Shown: positions 5,569-62,088, counted from the stretch's first letter. The stretch is DNA of 64,000 bases from Sedimentisphaerales bacterium (GCA_049518795.1 JBEKRK010000002.1:564146-628145), one strand, 5' to 3'. Notes: generated by a model from the letters alone, not told the origin. Numbers and translations are program-made.

Positions 5569-6654
5569 ATGGACGAGGAAAAATTTACAGGGGAAAACTT
5601 AAACGGGTCGAATAACTCCGCTTTAGGCGAGACCTCGCCTTTGGGCGGGCAGGAATTGCTTGAGACGGAAGGCGCCGAGCATCTTTCATTGCGGGTTGGA
5701 AACAACATAACGAATCGCAGATTAGACAAATATCTCCAGGGCAGATTAAGTCAATTCAGCAGAACTACTATCCAGAAGCTGATAAAAGAGCAGGGGATAA
5801 CAGTAAACGCCAAATATGTAAAGCCCAGCACCAAACTTTCGCCGGGCGACACTGTGGATTTGATTCTGCCTCCGCCGGAGATTAAGGAGATTATTCCTGA
5901 AGATATTCCATTAAATGTTATTTATGAAGATGAGGATATTCTTGTTATAAATAAGCAGGCGGACTTGATTGTTCATCCGGCAAGAGGCTTTAAAAAAGGC
6001 ACGCTTGTAAATGCACTTGTTTATTACGCAAAACAACATTCAAAGCAGCTTTCGAAGGGCAGCGAGGAATTCCGCCCCGGCATAGTTCACAGGCTCGACC
6101 GCAATACTACCGGCGTCCTCGTTATCGCAAAAAATGATACTGCACACTGGCGGCTGGCAAGACAATTTGAAATGAGACAAACAAAGAAGCATTATCTTGC
6201 GATTGTGCACGGAACGCCGGAACTTTCAGCGGATTGCATAAATAAGCCGCTTGCTGTTCATCCGATAATACGCGAGAGATTTGCAGTCAGGCCGGAAATC
6301 GGCAAAGAAGCGATTACATATTATGAAGTTCTTGAAAAATTCAGGGGTTATTCACTGCTCAAGCTTGATATAAGAACCGGCAGGACACATCAAATTCGCG
6401 TTCATATGTCTTATATCAAACACCCCATAGTCGGCGATGAAATGTATGGCGGAAAAATCGTCTATCGCTGGCAGATTGAGGATAAAGAGGCCAAGCCCCA
6501 GGAGCCGCTTTTGGCAAGACCTGCTCTTCACGCCTGGCAGCTCAAATTGACGCATCCGACGACAAACAAGAAAATGACGTTTGAAGCTCCATTTCCGCAG
6601 GATATGCAGCAATTACTGGAAGAATTACGGAAATACAGAAAAACAGGCGTGTGA
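5569..6654 (+). CDS. rluD: 23S rRNA pseudouridine synthase, RluD/RluA family, with long N-terminal extension
   Basis: S4-like region, then the HRLDRNTTGVLVIAK catalytic motif and the RTGRTHQIRVH motif. Confidence 0.9.
   Translation: MDEEKFTGENLNGSNNSALGETSPLGGQELLETEGAEHLSLRVGNNITNRRLDKYLQGRLSQFSRTTIQKLIKEQGITVNAKYVKPSTKLSPGDTVDLILPPPEIKEIIPEDIPLNVIYEDEDILVINKQADLIVHPARGFKKGTLVNALVYYAKQHSKQLSKGSEEFRPGIVHRLDRNTTGVLVIAKNDTAHWRLARQFEMRQTKKHYLAIVHGTPELSADCINKPLAVHPIIRERFAVRPEIGKEAITYYEVLEKFRGYSLLKLDIRTGRTHQIRVHMSYIKHPIVGDEMYGGKIVYRWQIEDKEAKPQEPLLARPALHAWQLKLTHPTTNKKMTFEAPFPQDMQQLLEELRKYRKTGV
5618..5649. repeat. family-1 palindromic repeat (CCGCnTTnGGCGAGACCTCGCCnnnGGGCGG), intragenic copy
   Basis: ccgctttaggcgagacctcgcctttgggcggg, translated as SALGETSPLGG inside rluD. 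Confidence 0.8.
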
Positions 6655-26118: not shown

Positions 26119-26185
26119 TCCGCCTTTGGCCCGGCCTCGCCTTCGGCGAGAGCCGAGGCGGGCGAGACCTCGCTCGCTGGCGGGG
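26119..26185. repeat. composite/nested family-1 palindromic repeat, intergenic
   Basis: tccgcctttggcccggcctcgccttcggcgagagccgaggcgggcgagacctcgctcgctggcgggg. Confidence 0.75.
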
Positions 26186-30508: not shown

Positions 30509-30641
30509 AAAGACACCAAGACACAAAGTTTTATATAATAACATAAAGATACCAAGACACAAATTTTTTAATATATCAATTTTTCTTAGTGCCTTCGCCT
30601 GTCCCGCCATAGCCTTTGGCGACGGCGGATGTCTTAGTGGC
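30504..30641. repeat. enlarged/nested family-3 hairpin repeat
   Basis: Left arm gccacaaagacaccaagacacaaag, plus an extra partial arm. The right arm cttagtgccttcgcc...gtcttagtggc is interrupted by a cccgcc...ggcgacggcgg insert. Confidence 0.75.
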
Positions 30642-31998
30642 TATAAATTGCGGTGGATTTTCCAGCCAGAAAACCGCTGGAAAATGCGAATTGCAGATTG
30701 TAACCCCCACAGGGGCCGTCAACATCAATTACTTCTCCTGCAAAAAACAGGCCGCTGCACAATTTCGACTGCATAGTTTCGGAGTCAATCTGTGTGATAT
30801 CAATGCCGCCTCTTGTTACTGTTGCCTTTTCTATTGATTCGGTTGAAGTAATGGTAAGCCCGAGATTTTTCAGTTTGCCGACAAGTAATCTCCTGGTTTG
30901 TTTGTCTATTTGACCTGCCCCAATTTGCCCCAGCCGACCCACCAAAGGGCGAGGTCTCGCCGAAGGCGGATTTATAAGGCATATCTGCTGGGCAGCCGCT
31001 TTAGGCAAAAATTGGGACAGAACAGAAACAACATTTTGTTTGGCATTCTGGGCAAAATAATCGGCAAGTTTTTTATCGAGCTCCTGTGAGTCTATAGCGG
31101 GCAGCAAGTCAATTGAGATTTCGATTTTATTCTTATTGAGTTTATCGGTTATGAATCGACTCAAATCAAAGACGGCAGGGCCGCCGATGCCTTTATGAGT
31201 GAAAATCATCGGGCCGGATGCAGAGATTTTTTTGTTTTCAATTTTACAGCTTATCTCGACATTTGTTATTCCTACACCTGCTAAAGATGAGCAAAACTTT
31301 TCAGCAGTTACAAGCGGAACAACGCAGGCCTTCGGCTCAATGATTTTATGTCCGAAGTCCTGGGCGAATCTGAAGCCGTCGCCGGTTGAGCCAGTCTGCG
31401 GCCAGCTTACGCCGCCGGTGGCAATTATCACAGATTTTGCCTCAATGTTAAATTTTTTGGACGACACTATGAACAAATCTTTCTCTTTTTTAACGGATTG
31501 AACTTTTTTACCGTAAAAAATTTGTATTGTAGGGGCAGACCTATGTGTTTGCTCAAAGGGTGAATACGCAGGTTCGCCCCTACAGTATTTTTTAATCTCA
31601 TCAAGCAGTATTCGTTTGACATCGCTTGAACGCTGGGTTTTTGGAAATACGCAGCCGTCGGCTTCTTCAATTGTTTCAAGGCCGCGGCGGCGGAAAAATT
31701 CTCTTAAACTCTGCGGCGGGAATTCATAAATGCAGTGGCGGACAAATTTGTCAAAAGGTTTGAATGCCCTGATAAATTCGTCAATTGTGCCGGTATGGGT
31801 CAGGTTGCATCTGCCTCGGCCGGTAAGCAGAAGTTTCCTGCCGGCAGTTGTGTTCGACTCGATAACAACAATTTTCGTAGGGGCAGACCTGCGTGTCTGC
31901 GCCGGGCGAACACATAGGTTCGCCCCTACATCCGCTGCGGCAGAAGCAGCCATCATGCCAGCCGGACCGGCGCCAATTATGCAAATGTCAGATTCCAT
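30634..31998 (-). CDS. HI0933-family NAD(P)/FAD-dependent oxidoreductase carrying three repeat-derived insertions
   Basis: [14 protein letters not shown] dinucleotide fold, GRKLLLTGRGRCNLTH, C-terminal GGYNLQFAFSSG. Start set at ATG 31998 (MESDICIIGAG); the track ORF begins at 32148. Confidence 0.8.
   Translation of the reverse strand: MESDICIIGAGPAGMMAASAAADVGANLCVRPAQTRRSAPTKIVVIESNTTAGRKLLLTGRGRCNLTHTGTIDEFIRAFKPFDKFVRHCIYEFPPQSLREFFRRRGLETIEEADGCVFPKTQRSSDVKRILLDEIKKYCRGEPAYSPFEQTHRSAPTIQIFYGKKVQSVKKEKDLFIVSSKKFNIEAKSVIIATGGVSWPQTGSTGDGFRFAQDFGHKIIEPKACVVPLVTAEKFCSSLAGVGITNVEISCKIENKKISASGPMIFTHKGIGGPAVFDLSRFITDKLNKNKIEISIDLLPAIDSQELDKKLADYFAQNAKQNVVSVLSQFLPKAAAQQICLINPPSARPRPLVGRLGQIGAGQIDKQTRRLLVGKLKNLGLTITSTESIEKATVTRGGIDITQIDSETMQSKLCSGLFFAGEVIDVDGPCGGYNLQFAFSSGFLAGKSTAIYSH
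30938..30969. repeat. family-1 palindromic repeat, intragenic
   Basis: cccaccaaagggcgaggtctcgccgaaggcgg, translated on the minus strand as PPSARPRPLVG. Confidence 0.8.
31529..31583. repeat. family-2 palindromic repeat (GTAGGGGCrrACC...GGTTCGCCCCTAC), intragenic
   Basis: gtaggggcagacctatgtgtttgctcaaagggtgaatacgcaggttcgcccctac, translated as RGEPAYSPFEQTHRSAPT. Confidence 0.8.
31878..31929. repeat. family-2 palindromic repeat, intragenic
   Basis: gtaggggcagacctgcgtgtctgcgccgggcgaacacataggttcgcccctac, translated as VGANLCVRPAQTRRSAPT. Confidence 0.8.
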
Positions 31999-41914: not shown

Positions 41915-42610
41915 ATGCAGCAGGCAAATGAAAAGGACAAATTTACTGCCGAGAGGCAGGCAATGGTTAGAATCCAGCTAAAAAGCAGGGATATCACAGA
42001 CCCTGCCGTTTTGCGGTCAATGGCTCAAATTCCGAGAGAAAAATTTATACCTGATGAATTTCTCGAACAAGCCTATTATGACGGCCCGTTGTCAATCGGC
42101 TGCGGCCAGACAATAAGCCAGCCTTATATTGTCGCTTTAATGACACAGGAATTGAAAGTTGATAAAGATTGTGATGTTCTCGAAATCGGAACAGGCAGCG
42201 GCTATCAGACCGCGATACTTGCCAAACTTGCCAAAGAAGTCTGGACAATCGAAAGAATAGGAAATCTTACATTAAAGGCGAGGCAGATTTTAGCTGAATT
42301 AAACATAACAAACGTGAAATTTCTCACAGGCGACGGCACAGTCGGCTGGCCTGAAAAAAAACAATCCGCCTTTGGCGAGACCTCGCCCCCGGGCGGGTTT
42401 GACAGGATAATAATTACAGCCGCGACTCCACAAATGCCCAAGCCGCTGATTGAGCAGTTGAAAACAGGCGGCCTGGCTGTTTTGCCGCAGGGAGCGGATT
42501 ACGTGCAGGAGCTTATTGTAATTGAAAAAACCGCAAGCGGCTTAAAATCTAAATTCGTTTGCGGATGCAGATTTGTTAAACTTATCGGAAAGTTCGGCTA
42601 CTCGGAATAA
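41915..42610 (+). CDS. pcm: protein-L-isoaspartate O-methyltransferase with repeat-derived insertion
   Basis: GQTISQPYIVALMTE, VLEIGTGSGYQTAILA, DRIIITAA. Start set at ATG 41915 (MQQANE); the track ORF begins at 41810. Confidence 0.9.
   Translation: MQQANEKDKFTAERQAMVRIQLKSRDITDPAVLRSMAQIPREKFIPDEFLEQAYYDGPLSIGCGQTISQPYIVALMTQELKVDKDCDVLEIGTGSGYQTAILAKLAKEVWTIERIGNLTLKARQILAELNITNVKFLTGDGTVGWPEKKQSAFGETSPPGGFDRIIITAATPQMPKPLIEQLKTGGLAVLPQGADYVQELIVIEKTASGLKSKFVCGCRFVKLIGKFGYSE
42366..42397. repeat. family-1 palindromic repeat, intragenic
   Basis: ccgcctttggcgagacctcgcccccgggcggg, translated as SAFGETSPPGG inside pcm. Confidence 0.85.
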
Positions 42611-46383: not shown

Positions 46384-47142
46384 ATGAAAAAGTTTATAAC
46401 AATTTGTGCAATAGCAACCGCCTTAAGTTTTGGGGTGAATATGGTCTGTGCTACTGAATTGCCTTATACCACCCCGAGCATTAACGGCGACATTACCACA
46501 ATGCAGGGGTCGGGTGGAACTTTTTCCTGGACCGATAGTTCAAGTGCGGTGGGAAATTGGTCGGCAAAATTGGATTGGCCCGGAACGGGCGGATACGCCC
46601 AGGCGAGAGTCTTTCCCGCACCTGCCGGTGTTACTACCGTCAGCAGTGTTAATTCCTGGAGCTATTGGGCGAACGCACCCGAAGACTACATCCCCAACCT
46701 CAGTTTCGTATTGGACGATCCCGACATAAGCAACAACGGGCCCATCTATTCGGGAGCAGGATACGATACAGTGGTCACAATCTGGCCTGCCAATGACAGC
46801 CTCGGTAATACGTGGCTGAACTTCACAAGCAACCAGAGTCTTAGCTACATCATCTGGACCAACGCCTACAGTGGCGGCCCGGTTATGAAGACTATGACTT
46901 GGTCGGAGTTTAAGAACCCATGGTCTCAGTGGGGAAACAACTTTGATTTTTCGAATGCCGCCGTGCTCAGGATGAACATCGGCAAGGGGGTCATTGGAAC
47001 AAACCAGACGATAACCGCATATGCAGACGACTTCGTCCTGAATAGTTACACCTACACTTTTGAACCTCTTCCTGAACCGGCGACGATGGTTCTATTGGCA
47101 ATCGGAGCAATGGCACTTTTGAGAAAAAAACCCGCCTTTTAG
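46384..47142 (+). CDS. PEP-CTERM secreted protein
   Basis: Signal peptide. C-terminus LPEPATMVLLAIGAMALLRKKPAF. The last 3 codons and the stop lie inside a family-1 repeat. Confidence 0.85.
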   Translation: MKKFITICAIATALSFGVNMVCATELPYTTPSINGDITTMQGSGGTFSWTDSSSAVGNWSAKLDWPGTGGYAQARVFPAPAGVTTVSSVNSWSYWANAPEDYIPNLSFVLDDPDISNNGPIYSGAGYDTVVTIWPANDSLGNTWLNFTSNQSLSYIIWTNAYSGGPVMKTMTWSEFKNPWSQWGNNFDFSNAAVLRMNIGKGVIGTNQTITAYADDFVLNSYTYTFEPLPEPATMVLLAIGAMALLRKKPAF

Positions 47143-47175
47143 AACAGCTAAAAGGCGAGGTCTCGCTGAAGGCGG
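47131..47175. repeat. family-1 palindromic repeat (expanded copy) at a gene 3' end
   Basis: cccgccttttagaacagctaaaaggcgaggtctcgctgaaggcgg. Confidence 0.75.
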
Positions 47176-47202
47176 ATAAATAGACCGAAATACTTTTTAA
47201 TA

Positions 47203-47234
47203 AAAGGCTGTGAATTTTTTCACAGCCTTTTTTT
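47203..47234. terminator. bidirectional intrinsic terminator between convergent genes
   Basis: aaaaggctgtg-aatttttt-cacagcc-ttttttt: an A-tract and a T-tract flank a 7-bp GC-rich stem. Confidence 0.7.
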
Positions 47235-48708
47235 CAGTATTTTCTGGTTTTGGCAGAATTTGAGCTGTTGTAATTCACGAAGAAATACCGCAGAGCGTCA
47301 ATTGGATGGTCGTAAATACCGTCCTTTAAAGGCAATTCTTCCGCACCTTCCTGCGGATAATGATAACACTGCATAGCCTCAATAAGCCTGCCGCAGCGAG
47401 GACTGATAACAAAATTGCTTCGTCCATCGCCGCTGCGCAAAGCCCTGCGAATAAGCTCTATTCCTTCCAATATCGAACTGCGTTTATAACGAAGTATTAC
47501 GCTGGCCTTTCTTAATTGAAAAACAGGACTTGTGCCTGTAACATCATTTACGCCAGCTCCCGCAGGGTCGCAAAAAGTAGCAATAATCCGCTCTTCGCTG
47601 AAAGGTATCCTGTTTTTTATCTCGTCAGCGTGAACGTCAATCGTCTGCCTGCTTTGGACATATTCATCAATGACGCGAACAGTTCCATTTCCGTCAATCT
47701 GAATCCACAAACATACAAACGGATTGACAAAGCCAAAGTCAATCGCGCGATACAGCGGCAAAGCCGGATTATAATCGACAGACGCAATGTGCACGTCAGG
47801 CTCGAATTCCGCAAAGACAACGTTTTCAAGCGATGGCCGAAGACAAAGCATTTCAGACTCAAAGGCGGCTCTGCTGCTCCGCCGCATCTGTGCCAGAACG
47901 TCATCTATCTTCAAATAGCCTGACGCTTTTCTCGCTCTGCCCCGGCAATCGTTATTCAGCGGACATCTTGAGCAGCTTCTGTCCGGCGGACAATTTTCAA
48001 TAACTTCCCAGACGCACCATTTGAAAATCGGCGTTCCGCAGGAAGAGGCCTTGCCGACAAGCTCGTGCATAATGCCGAAAGGCTGATGCATCGTGCTAAG
48101 CGATTCTATTGCACCGACAATTTCATTAGTGCTTTTGGTAACGAACTTTGCCGCTTCGAGAATCTGCCTGTCGAAAAGCTCAACCTCATCACAACGTAAT
48201 TTCTGGATATGACTGCCGCGAACGGAAGCCGCCGATTGGGTGAGAACTTCGACATCTGAGCCGTTAAGGAAGCTGCATTTATTTTTATGAACAGGTTCGG
48301 AAAGAAAACCTTCAAAACCTTTTCTTAAAAATTCGAGCAGGTAATCGAACATTCTTTGAGCCTGCAATTCACTGCCGGCGAGGATTCTAACTTTACAGTC
48401 AGGCTTAAAGATACAATCCAGCAGCGTAGCAACAGCGGCCAAAAGTGTCTTTCCGCCTCCGCGGCCTGCCCAGACGACACAATCCTTTGAGATTTGAGAT
48501 TTGAAATTTCAGAGAAGCAATGCTAAAGATAATCCATCGGCGTATTATGTTCAGGACAGATTTTTGCCTCGCCGATGTCAAGGCCGAGAAAGACTTTGAG
48601 ATAATTTTTTAAATCGGTTCTTGTCAGCGGTCTTGTTTTTTTAAGAGTTTGGTAAAAACTATTTGCTTTTAAAAGATGCTGCGGAGATAGAATGATTGAG
48701 TTGTGCAT
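47234..48708 (-). pseudogene. phage terminase large subunit, interrupted near the N-terminus (fragments 48523..48708 and 47234..48508)
   Basis: Own upstream extension of the 402-aa ORF reads NFKSQISKDCVVWAGRGGGKTLLAAVATLL. The Walker A (GRGGGKT) therefore lies upstream of the only usable start codon. A 61-aa ORF ending ...CPEHNTPMDYL lies upstream in another frame. A family-4 repeat sits at the junction. Confidence 0.65.
48488..48514. repeat. family-4 repeat at the terminase break point
   Basis: tgagatttgagatttgaaatttcagag. Confidence 0.75.
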
Positions 48709-52375: not shown

Positions 52376-52769
52376 GTCTGGCTGGTCGAGCGGCCGCCCC
52401 CTCAGCTTCTTGCGAAGCAAGAGAGGGGGAGGAAAGTCCGGGCAGGACAGGGCACAGCGATGGCTAACGGCCACTATGAGATTTCAAATTTGAGATTTCA
52501 GAAGGAAAGTGCCACAGAAAATACACCGCCAATTTGAGATTTGAGATTTCAAATTTGAGATTGGTAAGGGTGAAAAGGTGCGGTAAGAGCGCACCGCGGT
52601 TCTGGCGACAGAACCGGCAGGGCAAACCCCGCTGCCTGCAAGACCAAGTATGCCGGTATGCTTTGCCCGAGCGTTAATCCGGCGGGTAGGTCGCTTGAGA
52701 TTGTCGGCAACGGCAGTCCTTAGAGAAATGGTCGCATAAAACAGAACCCGGCTTACGGACCTGCCAGAC
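52376..52769 (+). ncRNA. rnpB: RNase P RNA, bacterial type A
   Basis: GAGGAAAGTCCGGGC (P4), GTGCCACAGAAAATACACCGCC, GGTAAGGGTGAAAAGGTGCGGTAAGAGCGCACC, GGGTAGGTCGCTTGAG, ACAGAACCCGGCTTAC. P1 pairing of gtctggctggtc with gacctgccagac. Confidence 0.92.
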
Positions 52770-52888
52770 AAAAAATTCAAAAGTGTAGAACCACGACACG
52801 GGGAATAAATTTTTTCATTTTCTTCTTTTTTTTTCGTTCGATTATAGGATAAGAAGAGGCAGATTTTCTTATAAGCAGGGATTTGGCG

Positions 52889-61287: not shown

Positions 61288-62088
61288 TTACTCCGCTATG
61301 GGATGGCTTACGCCACTCGGATTCTTGTAAATTACCTCAGCTTCGCCTGCCAGATGCTTTATGACGATTACATCCGGCAGCAAGTCAACCAGCAGGTCAT
61401 CGTGTGAGCTTGCGAGGACAAAGATTTTGCCGGTTTTTGTCGCGAATTTACGCAGGTTATAGCTGATAATCGCTGCTGTTACACGGTCGAGATTGCTGCA
61501 GAACTCATCGGCGAAGATAAATTGTTTATCGCTTGTAATAGCCTTTGCTATGCGGTATCTGTATTTTTGTCCTTCACTTAAGTTGGCGGGAGAATTGAGA
61601 ACGCAAAAGACATCTGTCAGACCCGCGCAGCTTAAATTTCTAAGCGTTTCAAGAACCCCGCACCTATTGTCCTGTTTCGTCCCCAACCCAAAATCATTTC
61701 GATTGCCATTTGTTGAATCAGTTGTTTCTTGGTTTTGGCACTGTGCAATAGGTGTGGGGTCGATGCAGTCAACGCAGGTTTTGTCATCGGGCAGGGGAAT
61801 ATCATCAATGTTGATTTTTTCACCGCCGGCAAAAGTGTTATAAAATTCTCTTAGCAGAACGCTTTTTCCGCTGCCGGAAGGGCCGGTGATGTAGGCAATT
61901 TGACCGGACGACAGTTTAATATCGCATTGATGCGTAATGGCGTTGTTTTTTAGTCTTTGAACCGTTATTCCAAAGGCTCGCAGGACGTCCGCGACTTTTT
62001 CAGTGACAGGCAGATTCCAATCGAATTTTTTGTCCGCCTTAAGCGAGACCTCGCCAAGAGGCGGGTTGGCAGATAATATTGTAATCAT
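61288..62088 (-). CDS. soluble ABC-type ATPase (no transmembrane partner nearby)
   Basis: Walker A GPSGSGKS, signature LSEGQKYR, Walker B FIFADEF, D-loop SNLD, H-loop SSHD. Codons 8-18 are encoded by a family-1 repeat. Confidence 0.75.
   Translation of the reverse strand: MITILSANPPLGEVSLKADKKFDWNLPVTEKVADVLRAFGITVQRLKNNAITHQCDIKLSSGQIAYITGPSGSGKSVLLREFYNTFAGGEKINIDDIPLPDDKTCVDCIDPTPIAQCQNQETTDSTNGNRNDFGLGTKQDNRCGVLETLRNLSCAGLTDVFCVLNSPANLSEGQKYRYRIAKAITSDKQFIFADEFCSNLDRVTAAIISYNLRKFATKTGKIFVLASSHDDLLVDLLPDVIVIKHLAGEAEVIYKNPSGVSHPIAE
62034..62065. repeat. family-1 palindromic repeat, intragenic
   Basis: ccgccttaagcgagacctcgccaagaggcggg, translated on the minus strand as PPLGEVSLKAD. Confidence 0.8.

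Follow-up and report, generated by a model that had tools for sequence, protein, structure and literature searches.

A 33-nucleotide palindromic repeat in frame in the pcm gene of a Sedimentisphaerales bacterium, probably a REP-like mobile hairpin carried as a passenger loop

Palindromic repeats inserted in frame were described in Rickettsia as the RPE families (RPE-1 to RPE-8; Ogata et al. 2000, as summarised in PMC3184786 and PMC3733652), with a length of approximately 105–146 nt for RPE-1 (PMC3184786). Intragenic REPs with GTAG or CGTC tags were catalogued in several phyla (Di Nocera et al. 2013, PMC3733652); RPE-4 and RPE-6 of R. conorii are among them, as are intragenic GTAG REPs of the verrucomicrobium Opitutus terrae, and pseudouridine synthase genes figure as REP targets (PMC3733652). 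The class of phenomenon is already known, since intragenic REPs have been published. The literature search returned no description of the repeat family analysed here, which we call F1, nor of such insertions in Phycisphaerae or Omnitrophota.

The window is a stretch of 64,000 nt from a Sedimentisphaerales bacterium (GCA_049518795.1, JBEKRK010000002.1:564146-628145). It carries a pcm gene, with an ATG at 41915 and a stop codon ending at 42610, and inside this gene a copy of F1:

41915-42610, plus strand: pcm, coding for a protein-L-isoaspartate O-methyltransferase of 231 aa (PF01135, E = 1.8e-51), intact around the insert
42365-42397, plus strand: F1 copy of the simple 33-nt form, in frame in pcm, codons 151-161, read as SAFGETSPPGG

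The letters of the insert are TCCGCC TTT GGCGAG AC CTCGCC CCCG GGCGGG, with a GC content of 79% against a window mean of approximately 44%. The first-pass annotation had quoted a 32-mer, which was found exactly at 42366-42397, as the repeat unit. The palindrome is indeed present at this place; its length is 33 and not 32 nt, because a T precedes CCGCC in 108 of the 110 full copies listed by the genome scan described below. The segment had been read as SAFGETSPPGG between the conserved GDG..GWPE and FDRIIITAA segments of Pcm, and the pcm ORF bore this out: the eleven residues sit between GDGTVGWPEKKQ and FDRIIITAA. The window protein matched PDB entries with E-values reaching 3e-41, and alignment with four solved Pcm chains (Vibrio 4l7v, E. 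coli 3lbf, Pyrococcus 1jg1 and Methanocaldococcus 2yxe) opened a gap of 11 residues between GW and FD, opposite the insert, in all four. The window protein is thus longer by the length of the element, as had been estimated, and the spacer of about five residues stated for E. coli Pcm was visible in the 3lbf alignment (GW-QARAP-FD).

The closest database proteins came from Phycisphaerae and Sedimentisphaerales MAGs and from metagenomes. The insert was missing from approximately 115 of the best 120 Pcm orthologs, most of which are 220 aa long and read GWPExKQ/FDRIIITAA; the alignment of orthologs and the solved structures, both proposed earlier as a check, were at one in missing the segment. The empty sites that had been sought in relatives were present at the DNA level. 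The sister contig encoding the ortholog P0002 reads AAG CAG / TTT GAC AGG, the window reads AAA CAA (TCC GCC TTT GGC GAG ACC TCG CCC CCG GGC GGG) TTT GAC AGG, and the same empty junction was found in six further pcm alleles. A second P0002-bearing contig has the gene order of the window. The comparison of filled and empty alleles therefore defines an inserted unit of exactly 33 nt, or 11 codons, and nothing beyond one ambiguous T could correspond to a target-site duplication. A junction scan of metagenomic contigs for further filled pcm alleles (pattern GAGACCTCGCCNNNNGGCGGGTTYGACAG) gave no match, and the search for Pcm loci that followed returned eight loci, none of them filled by F1.

All of the nearly invariant Pcm residues are intact in the window protein. 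An AlphaFold model computed with 48 sequences had a mean pLDDT of 84.5, and values below 50 were confined to both termini and to residues 150–159. In this model the insert joins the strand 134–137, with GDG at its end, to the strand 164–167 (RIII), and the remaining fold is intact. The insert would thus be a disordered surface loop. That Pcm tolerates it is suggested by the uninterrupted ORF together with the conserved motifs and the modelled disorder.

A different element of 24 nt, CCCTTCGACTCCGCTCAGGACAGG, was observed directly after the GW of pcm, four codons upstream of the F1 site, in several lineages, and was doubled in two of them. One of its strands is read as PFDSAQDRP and the opposite one as PVLSEVEG, and the element occurs inverted in another gene. 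The carriers are the pcm loci L121 and L002, the proteins P0005, P0007, P0009, P0019, P0022, P0029 and P0066, and P0136, an ortholog of the HI0933-like protein considered below; none was present in the window. Its position near the F1 site in these other lineages makes the pcm loop evidently permissive.

The pcm copy is one of six in the window. The 14-nt core GGCGAGACCTCGCC, with up to two mismatches allowed, matched six sites (nine strand matches), against 0.14 expected from dinucleotide shuffles, and none of 100 shuffles reached the observed number; the repeat count in the window is therefore above chance. With R1, a covariance model built from 55 distinct F1 copies, the top match in the window was the pcm copy (54.9 bits), and the scan of the window revealed no credible degenerate copies. 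The five other copies are as follows:

5617-5649, plus strand: F1 copy in frame in the N-terminal tail of rluD, read as SALGETSPLGG (R1, 52.8 bits)
26119-26185, plus strand: composite F1 copy in a spacer flanked by divergent ORFs, its 5' bulge holding an additional hairpin (R1 match at 26119-26162, plus strand)
30938-30970, minus strand: F1 copy in frame in the gene of an HI0933-like flavoprotein, read as PPSARPRPLVG (R1, 53.7 bits)
47131-47176, minus strand: F1 variant, copy E, whose 3' bulge holds an additional hairpin, TTTTAG-CTGTT-CTAAAA (R1 match at 47147-47173, minus strand)
62033-62065, plus strand: F1 copy F, antisense to an ABC-ATPase ORF (R1, 51.2 bits)

Three of the six copies were verified as coding and one more is probably so. 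The rluD copy has the frame and orientation of the pcm copy, and the claim that the same GETSP peptide recurs in rluD was correct. The tail of this protein (MDEQxLTGxNxNEQNN-QE...) is kept from the ATG in approximately 55 orthologs. The insert measures exactly 11 aa. Apart from the window protein, it was seen solely in P0242–P0244, the three nearest relatives (88–90% identical), and was missing from the next relative (88%) and from the approximately 55 other orthologs; it is inherited vertically within a small clade. The copy in the HI0933-like gene has the orientation of the gene and is read in the next frame relative to the pcm copy, and an exact 11-aa gap faced it in 44 of the 44 nearest orthologs listed. 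Copy F spans codons 7–19 (ANPPLGEVSLKAD) of the ABC-ATPase ORF (61288-62088, minus strand), whose ATG overlaps the upstream stop (ATGA), and may be either coding or part of the 5' leader. Copy E provides the last three codons (PAF) and the stop codon of a PEP-CTERM ORF (46384-47142, plus strand), and the composite copy is predicted to adopt a three-way fold (z = -3.0).

The HI0933-like gene (30634-31998, minus strand) holds three repeat insertions: the F1 copy and two GTAG-tagged REP dimers, also in frame, at 31870-31926 and 31522-31587. The heads of these dimers, GTAGGGGCAGAC and GTAGGGGCGAAC, are the sole four such heads in the window; the dimers are read as ...GANLCVRPAQTRRSAPT... and ...CRGEPAYSPFEQTHRSAPT..., and were missing from 44 of the 44 nearest orthologs listed. 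Elsewhere in the window, the ORF at 47234-48442 (minus strand) resembles a phage terminase large subunit, with a hairpin and T-run at approximately 47203-47230, and the syntenic gene of a sister contig gave a weak Terminase_6C match. The RNase P RNA (bacterial class A, RF00010, 290.8 bits) lies at 52378-52771 on the plus strand.

The distribution of F1 was examined in a genome collection holding one genome per species, with the 22-nt 5' half of the element as query. More than 113 loci were found, with approximately 110 full copies among the matches listed. Among these matches, the full structure was present in Sedimentisphaerales, Phycisphaerae and "Pirellulales" MAGs, in five Omnitrophota MAGs and one single-cell genome, in two Firestonebacteria MAGs and in one Verrucomicrobiae MAG. 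The Omnitrophota copies usually have a 3' bulge of 7–10 nt, so that some of them are 36 nt long, and those of Firestonebacteria are embedded in a larger repeat. Matches in Streptomyces, Kitasatospora, Bosea, Methylopila, Polyangiaceae and a Firmicutes scaffold had no closing stem and were set aside as chance-like, because their number fits the handful expected in high-GC DNA. The Rfam search gave nothing at the gathering score and only noise at E-values up to 10.

Many "Pirellulales" copies (e.g., at loci L019, L025, L105, L112, L023 and L095) are flanked by direct repeats of an 8–9-mer, AATCYGTG(T). These sometimes form short tandem runs which, being stop-free, create very long and possibly spurious ORFs (1199 codons at locus L065). 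The sole contig of the viral collection with an F1 copy was IMG/VR UViG_3300002172_000059 (locus L125, 2542-2577), which has the 36-nt form with a 7-nt bulge; with just this one viral contig carrying a copy, phages were not retained as the vector of F1.

The consensus of the 33-nt form is T-CCGCC-TTY-RGCGAG-AC-CTCGCC-NNNN-GGCGG-G. Folded as single-stranded DNA, it forms an outer stem of 5–6 bp, asymmetric bulges and an inner hairpin (-10.2 kcal/mol), and the opposite strand gives an equivalent fold. In the 45-nt form, the 4-nt bulge is replaced by a second hairpin, which creates a three-way junction (-19.4 kcal/mol, z = -5.0). The sequence of this second arm varies while its pairing is kept: four of the six pairs are changed on both sides, and 91% of the cells are paired, compared to 36–53% in slid controls. 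The F1 structure is under constraint. Some copies, copy E of the window included, hold quite unrelated hairpins in the second-arm slot. In the flanks of the 110 listed copies, a bias was confined to positions -3 to -1, with a G at -2 in 71 copies and a pyrimidine at -3 in 86. At pcm, positions -3 and -2 belong to a Gln codon that is also found in the empty alleles, and therefore the bias reflects, at least in part, a preference for the target rather than just a tag carried by the element. The patterns of wobbles and mismatches were mixed and allowed no inference on the strand of action.

In two other Pcm orthologs, P0015 and P0046, the 33 nt recur with position and frame unchanged. Their inserts match the window copy at 32 of 33 and 29 of 33 positions, respectively, for host proteins that share 74% and 70% identity with the window protein; the element thus appears from these sequences to be more conserved than its pcm flanks. 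A neighbour-joining tree of Pcm was built with the insert columns removed and 100 bootstraps. P0015 grouped with P0047, which has no F1 (100% bootstrap), P0046 fell in a clade with P0053, P0054, P0056 and P0066, all free of F1 (98%), and the window protein was placed beside the empty P0002. None of the 100 bootstraps united two filled sequences. The tree calls for three gains of the insert or, were it ancestral, for no fewer than 16 precise losses. F1 would have entered this site separately in three or more Sedimentisphaerales lineages, which suggests that a preference of insertion (5' YG^T) acts together with selection keeping only the insertions that fall in permissive loops. Three insertions at one nucleotide are hard to explain by a weak flank preference alone and suggest some target selectivity beyond permissiveness.

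Instead of repeated insertion, a single original event could have been followed by the spread of the filled segment among related Sedimentisphaerales, through homologous recombination or gene conversion. The identity of site, orientation and frame in the three filled lineages would be expected from such a transfer, and the highly conserved flanking codons (K-Q/F-D-R-I) could support recombination. The host proteins are only 70–74% identical, a level at which homologous recombination is inefficient, and the DNA adjacent to the insert was no more alike between two filled alleles than between a filled and an empty one, with differing synonymous sites. In addition, locus L002 has the other, 24-nt element at four codons upstream, and the filled lineages are rich in F1 in their own right, as illustrated by a second copy at locus L003. 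The DNA flanking the filled inserts contains no shared tract, so that a transfer is unsupported, and we regard it as unlikely.

At locus L003, this second copy is intergenic and lies 374 nt downstream of the filled pcm. In the region 760-830 of L003, the intergenic F1 is centred in a larger inverted repeat (AGTAGTGAGTG ... CACACTACTT), which suggests either an insertion into a bigger palindrome or the growth of one. In a Phycisphaerae MAG (JBGOWI010000001.1, locus L031), an F1 copy in a BioF-like ORF is read as Q/SAFGETSPLGG/FDRI; its 3' flank, TTCGACAGAATC, is nearly that of the pcm junction, TTTGACAGGATA, the two genes being unrelated, and a GC-rich segment (RCDRVATGRTQ) lies immediately upstream of the copy. 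A target motif shared with pcm was not retained, and the resemblance was treated as possibly coincidental because only positions -3 to -1 are biased over the 110 listed copies.

The genome-wide census of frame and orientation proposed by the first-pass annotation was made with a heuristic criterion for long ORFs: a minimum of 150 codons, the copy lying 25 codons or more from either end. By this heuristic, 41 of the 110 listed copies (approximately 37%) lie in long ORFs, some of which cross the AATCYGTG 9-mer repeats and may be spurious. The length added was 33, 36 or 45 nt, always a multiple of three, in 40 of these 41 copies; among the 69 listed copies outside long ORFs, 17 have a length that is not a multiple of three. 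Both orientations and all six frames are occupied among the long-ORF copies listed, unevenly:

SAFGETSPxGG, forward strand of the element: 15 copies listed
PPxGEVSPKAD, reverse strand of the element: 10 copies listed
PPLARPRxLAG, forward strand of the element: 7 copies listed
PAxGRGLAKGG, reverse strand of the element: 7 copies listed
Arg/Trp-rich frames, one per strand: rare, 1 copy each listed

This is the pattern expected from translation of the copies and from selection purging those that shift the frame or disrupt the protein.

We consider it probable that the pcm segment is a non-autonomous, dispersed mobile hairpin of the REP kind, inserted in frame and tolerated as a passenger loop. 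F1 would owe its spread through the genome to a copying function that acts in trans; the pcm copy landed between the Gln and Phe codons ahead of the strand beta-5. Its 33 nt contain no stop codon and leave the pcm reading frame undisturbed, so that the copy would be translated as an 11-residue loop rich in Gly, Pro and Ser, within the insert-spanning peptide KQSAFGETSPPGGFDR. The peptide is probably functionless, a neutral or slightly deleterious passenger. By analogy with the REP/RAYT and IS200/IS605 systems, we infer mobilisation in trans by an enzyme acting on single-stranded hairpins; the likeliest route would be a trans-acting HUH/Y1 transposase (RAYT or IS200-IS605-like) which recognises the folded single strand and whose insertion would leave no target-site duplication. 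True GTAG REPs lie in frame in the same genome, and REP-type mobilisation therefore probably operates in this organism. A shallow search identified no RAYT or IS200-like gene in the window or beside the copies examined. At five loci with inverted F1 pairs, no recognisable transposase was enclosed (one ORF of 199 aa had no Pfam match), and all-against-all clustering of approximately 1950 ORFs from the 113 listed loci gave no Y1-like family.

Alternatively, F1 could be a mobile hairpin that preserves the frame, selects its targets and is served by a dedicated enzyme, homing repeatedly to the pcm codon boundary, and not a REP accident; we hold this to be unlikely. A new HUH nuclease could then be the enzyme, or the role could fall to the HNH-AP2 proteins seen repeatedly close to the copies. 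The system would be conserved across Planctomycetota, Omnitrophota, Firestonebacteria and Verrucomicrobiota, the lengths of 33, 36 and 45 nt would be an adaptation to life inside genes, and F1 would be a general source of inserted loops in the proteins of bacteria. The sole recurrent candidate for a mobility gene was a homing-endonuclease-like HNH_3+AP2 family, present at six of the 113 listed loci (L015, L063, L082, L091, L100 and L114); the window has no such gene. Two of the six ORFs abut F1: at L091 the copy forms the last 11 codons, and at L082 it lies 14 nt upstream. This adjacency was judged to be within chance, because a copy outside genes has approximately a 2-in-8 chance of falling in a spacer that adjoins any given gene.

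We find it highly unlikely that the pcm insert was exapted, its loop or its mRNA or DNA hairpin being selected for a function such as the control of translation, of mRNA stability or of contacts with other proteins. In favour of such a function, no copy of the window is closer to the consensus than that of pcm, the insertion recurs at the same Pcm loop, and the GETSP frame is over-represented among the listed intragenic copies. The closest Pcm orthologs nevertheless do without the insert, and the same sequence is found in spacers and in unrelated genes, where other frames and the opposite strand are also used. Furthermore, the L003 copy has already lost one stem pair, and the loop is disordered in the model. 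An untranslated F1, skipped by ribosome bypass or removed from the RNA like the yeast mitochondrial "byp" insertions, could be imagined for a GC-rich hairpin in an AT-richer gene. The frame and length pattern of the copies in ORFs argues against bypass or excision: avoidance of frameshifts and stops would be needless, and yet the copies are open and multiples of three in 40 of 41 cases, compared to 52 of 69 elsewhere among the listed copies. No pair of take-off and landing codons was evident in the flanks (CAA and TTT), and this explanation is very improbable. The presence of the segment in three divergent orthologs could also be ascribed to an ancestral Pcm loop lost by most lineages, a hypothesis effectively refuted by the need for at least 16 exact 33-nt losses, by the match of the DNA with a repeat of unrelated genes and intergenic DNA across phyla, and by the lack of the loop in distant Pcm structures.

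As a REP-like passenger, F1 in pcm offers a clean and datable example of short selfish DNA adding loops to conserved enzymes outside Rickettsia, in a free-living uncultured host for which both empty and filled alleles are available. Three features go beyond a routine REP: the breadth of the distribution (PVC lineages and Firestonebacteria), the lengths in multiples of three, and the three parallel insertions at one codon boundary. The parallel insertions and the lengths make target choice and selection for harmlessness inside genes testable. On the practical side, F1 inserts inflate and distort the protein predictions and alignments of MAGs, in which the motifs GETSP, PPLARPR, GEVSPKAD and RSAPT are repeat-derived.

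The first-pass annotation had seen in pcm an RPE-like insertion. A dispersed palindrome does lie in frame in conserved enzymes (pcm, rluD and the HI0933-like gene); it is probably not a member of the Rickettsia RPE families and stands structurally nearer to short REP hairpins. Both F1 and the RPEs are dispersed palindromes found in frame in conserved housekeeping genes, with other copies in intergenic DNA, and the F1 loop, like the RPE segments, would be an extra surface segment tolerated by the protein. F1, presumably unrelated to them in sequence, differs by its length of 33–45 nt, by the use of all six frames and by the repeated striking of the same site, and its host is a free-living bacterium of the PVC group, whereas that of the RPEs is an obligate intracellular alphaproteobacterium. 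Membership of F1 in the RPE family is implausible, as host, length and composition set it apart.

F1 was also compared with other systems. MITEs differ from F1, which is a single hairpin with no known parent IS and no target duplication of 2 bp or more. The BRE of Bordetella and the pneumococcal BOX, RUP and SPRITE elements are, like copy E, small repeats fused internally or terminally to ORFs, but they measure approximately 100 nt or more, belong to other lineages and often disrupt the gene (PMC3184786). The mitochondrial GC clusters and "byp" elements and the palindromes of Nematomorpha mtDNA are also GC-rich or palindromic insertions inside protein genes; those are bypassed or are long perfect inverted repeats (PMC6649704), whereas F1 shows the constraints on frame and stops that ordinary translation would impose.

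The closest likeness is with the REPs. Like them, F1 is a GC-rich imperfect hairpin of 20–40 bp with unpaired bases, high in copy number, sometimes located in ORFs, those of pseudouridine synthases included, and present in the PVC group. With respect to the generic definition of a REP, F1 is an imperfect palindrome of 20–40 nt with many dispersed copies and a conserved hairpin, but it departs from the mainly extragenic location, with 41 of the 110 listed copies in long ORFs by the heuristic used here. About a third or more of the copies thus lie in ORFs, whereas most REPs are intergenic, and F1 is rarely dimeric. The tags differ from those of GTAG REPs: F1 has neither GTAG nor CTAC, its 5' end being YGT-CCGCC and its 3' end GGCGGG-T/C, and the true GTAG REPs of the window look different from it. 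The YGT ahead of the element in pcm is partly derived from the target and is not clearly a tag. A CGTC REP is defined by a CGTC tag (or TGTC/CCTC), a stem of 8–9 bp with A/T first pairs, a loop of 4–5 nt and a CCA tail (PMC3733652). The CGTC REPs have no known dedicated transposase either, and their tag degenerates to TGTC (PMC3733652); YGTC was present in roughly half of the listed F1 copies. The architecture is nevertheless different, as the F1 stem consists of 5 bp of pure G/C, interrupted by bulges and followed by an inner hairpin of 5–6 bp, with no CCA tail.
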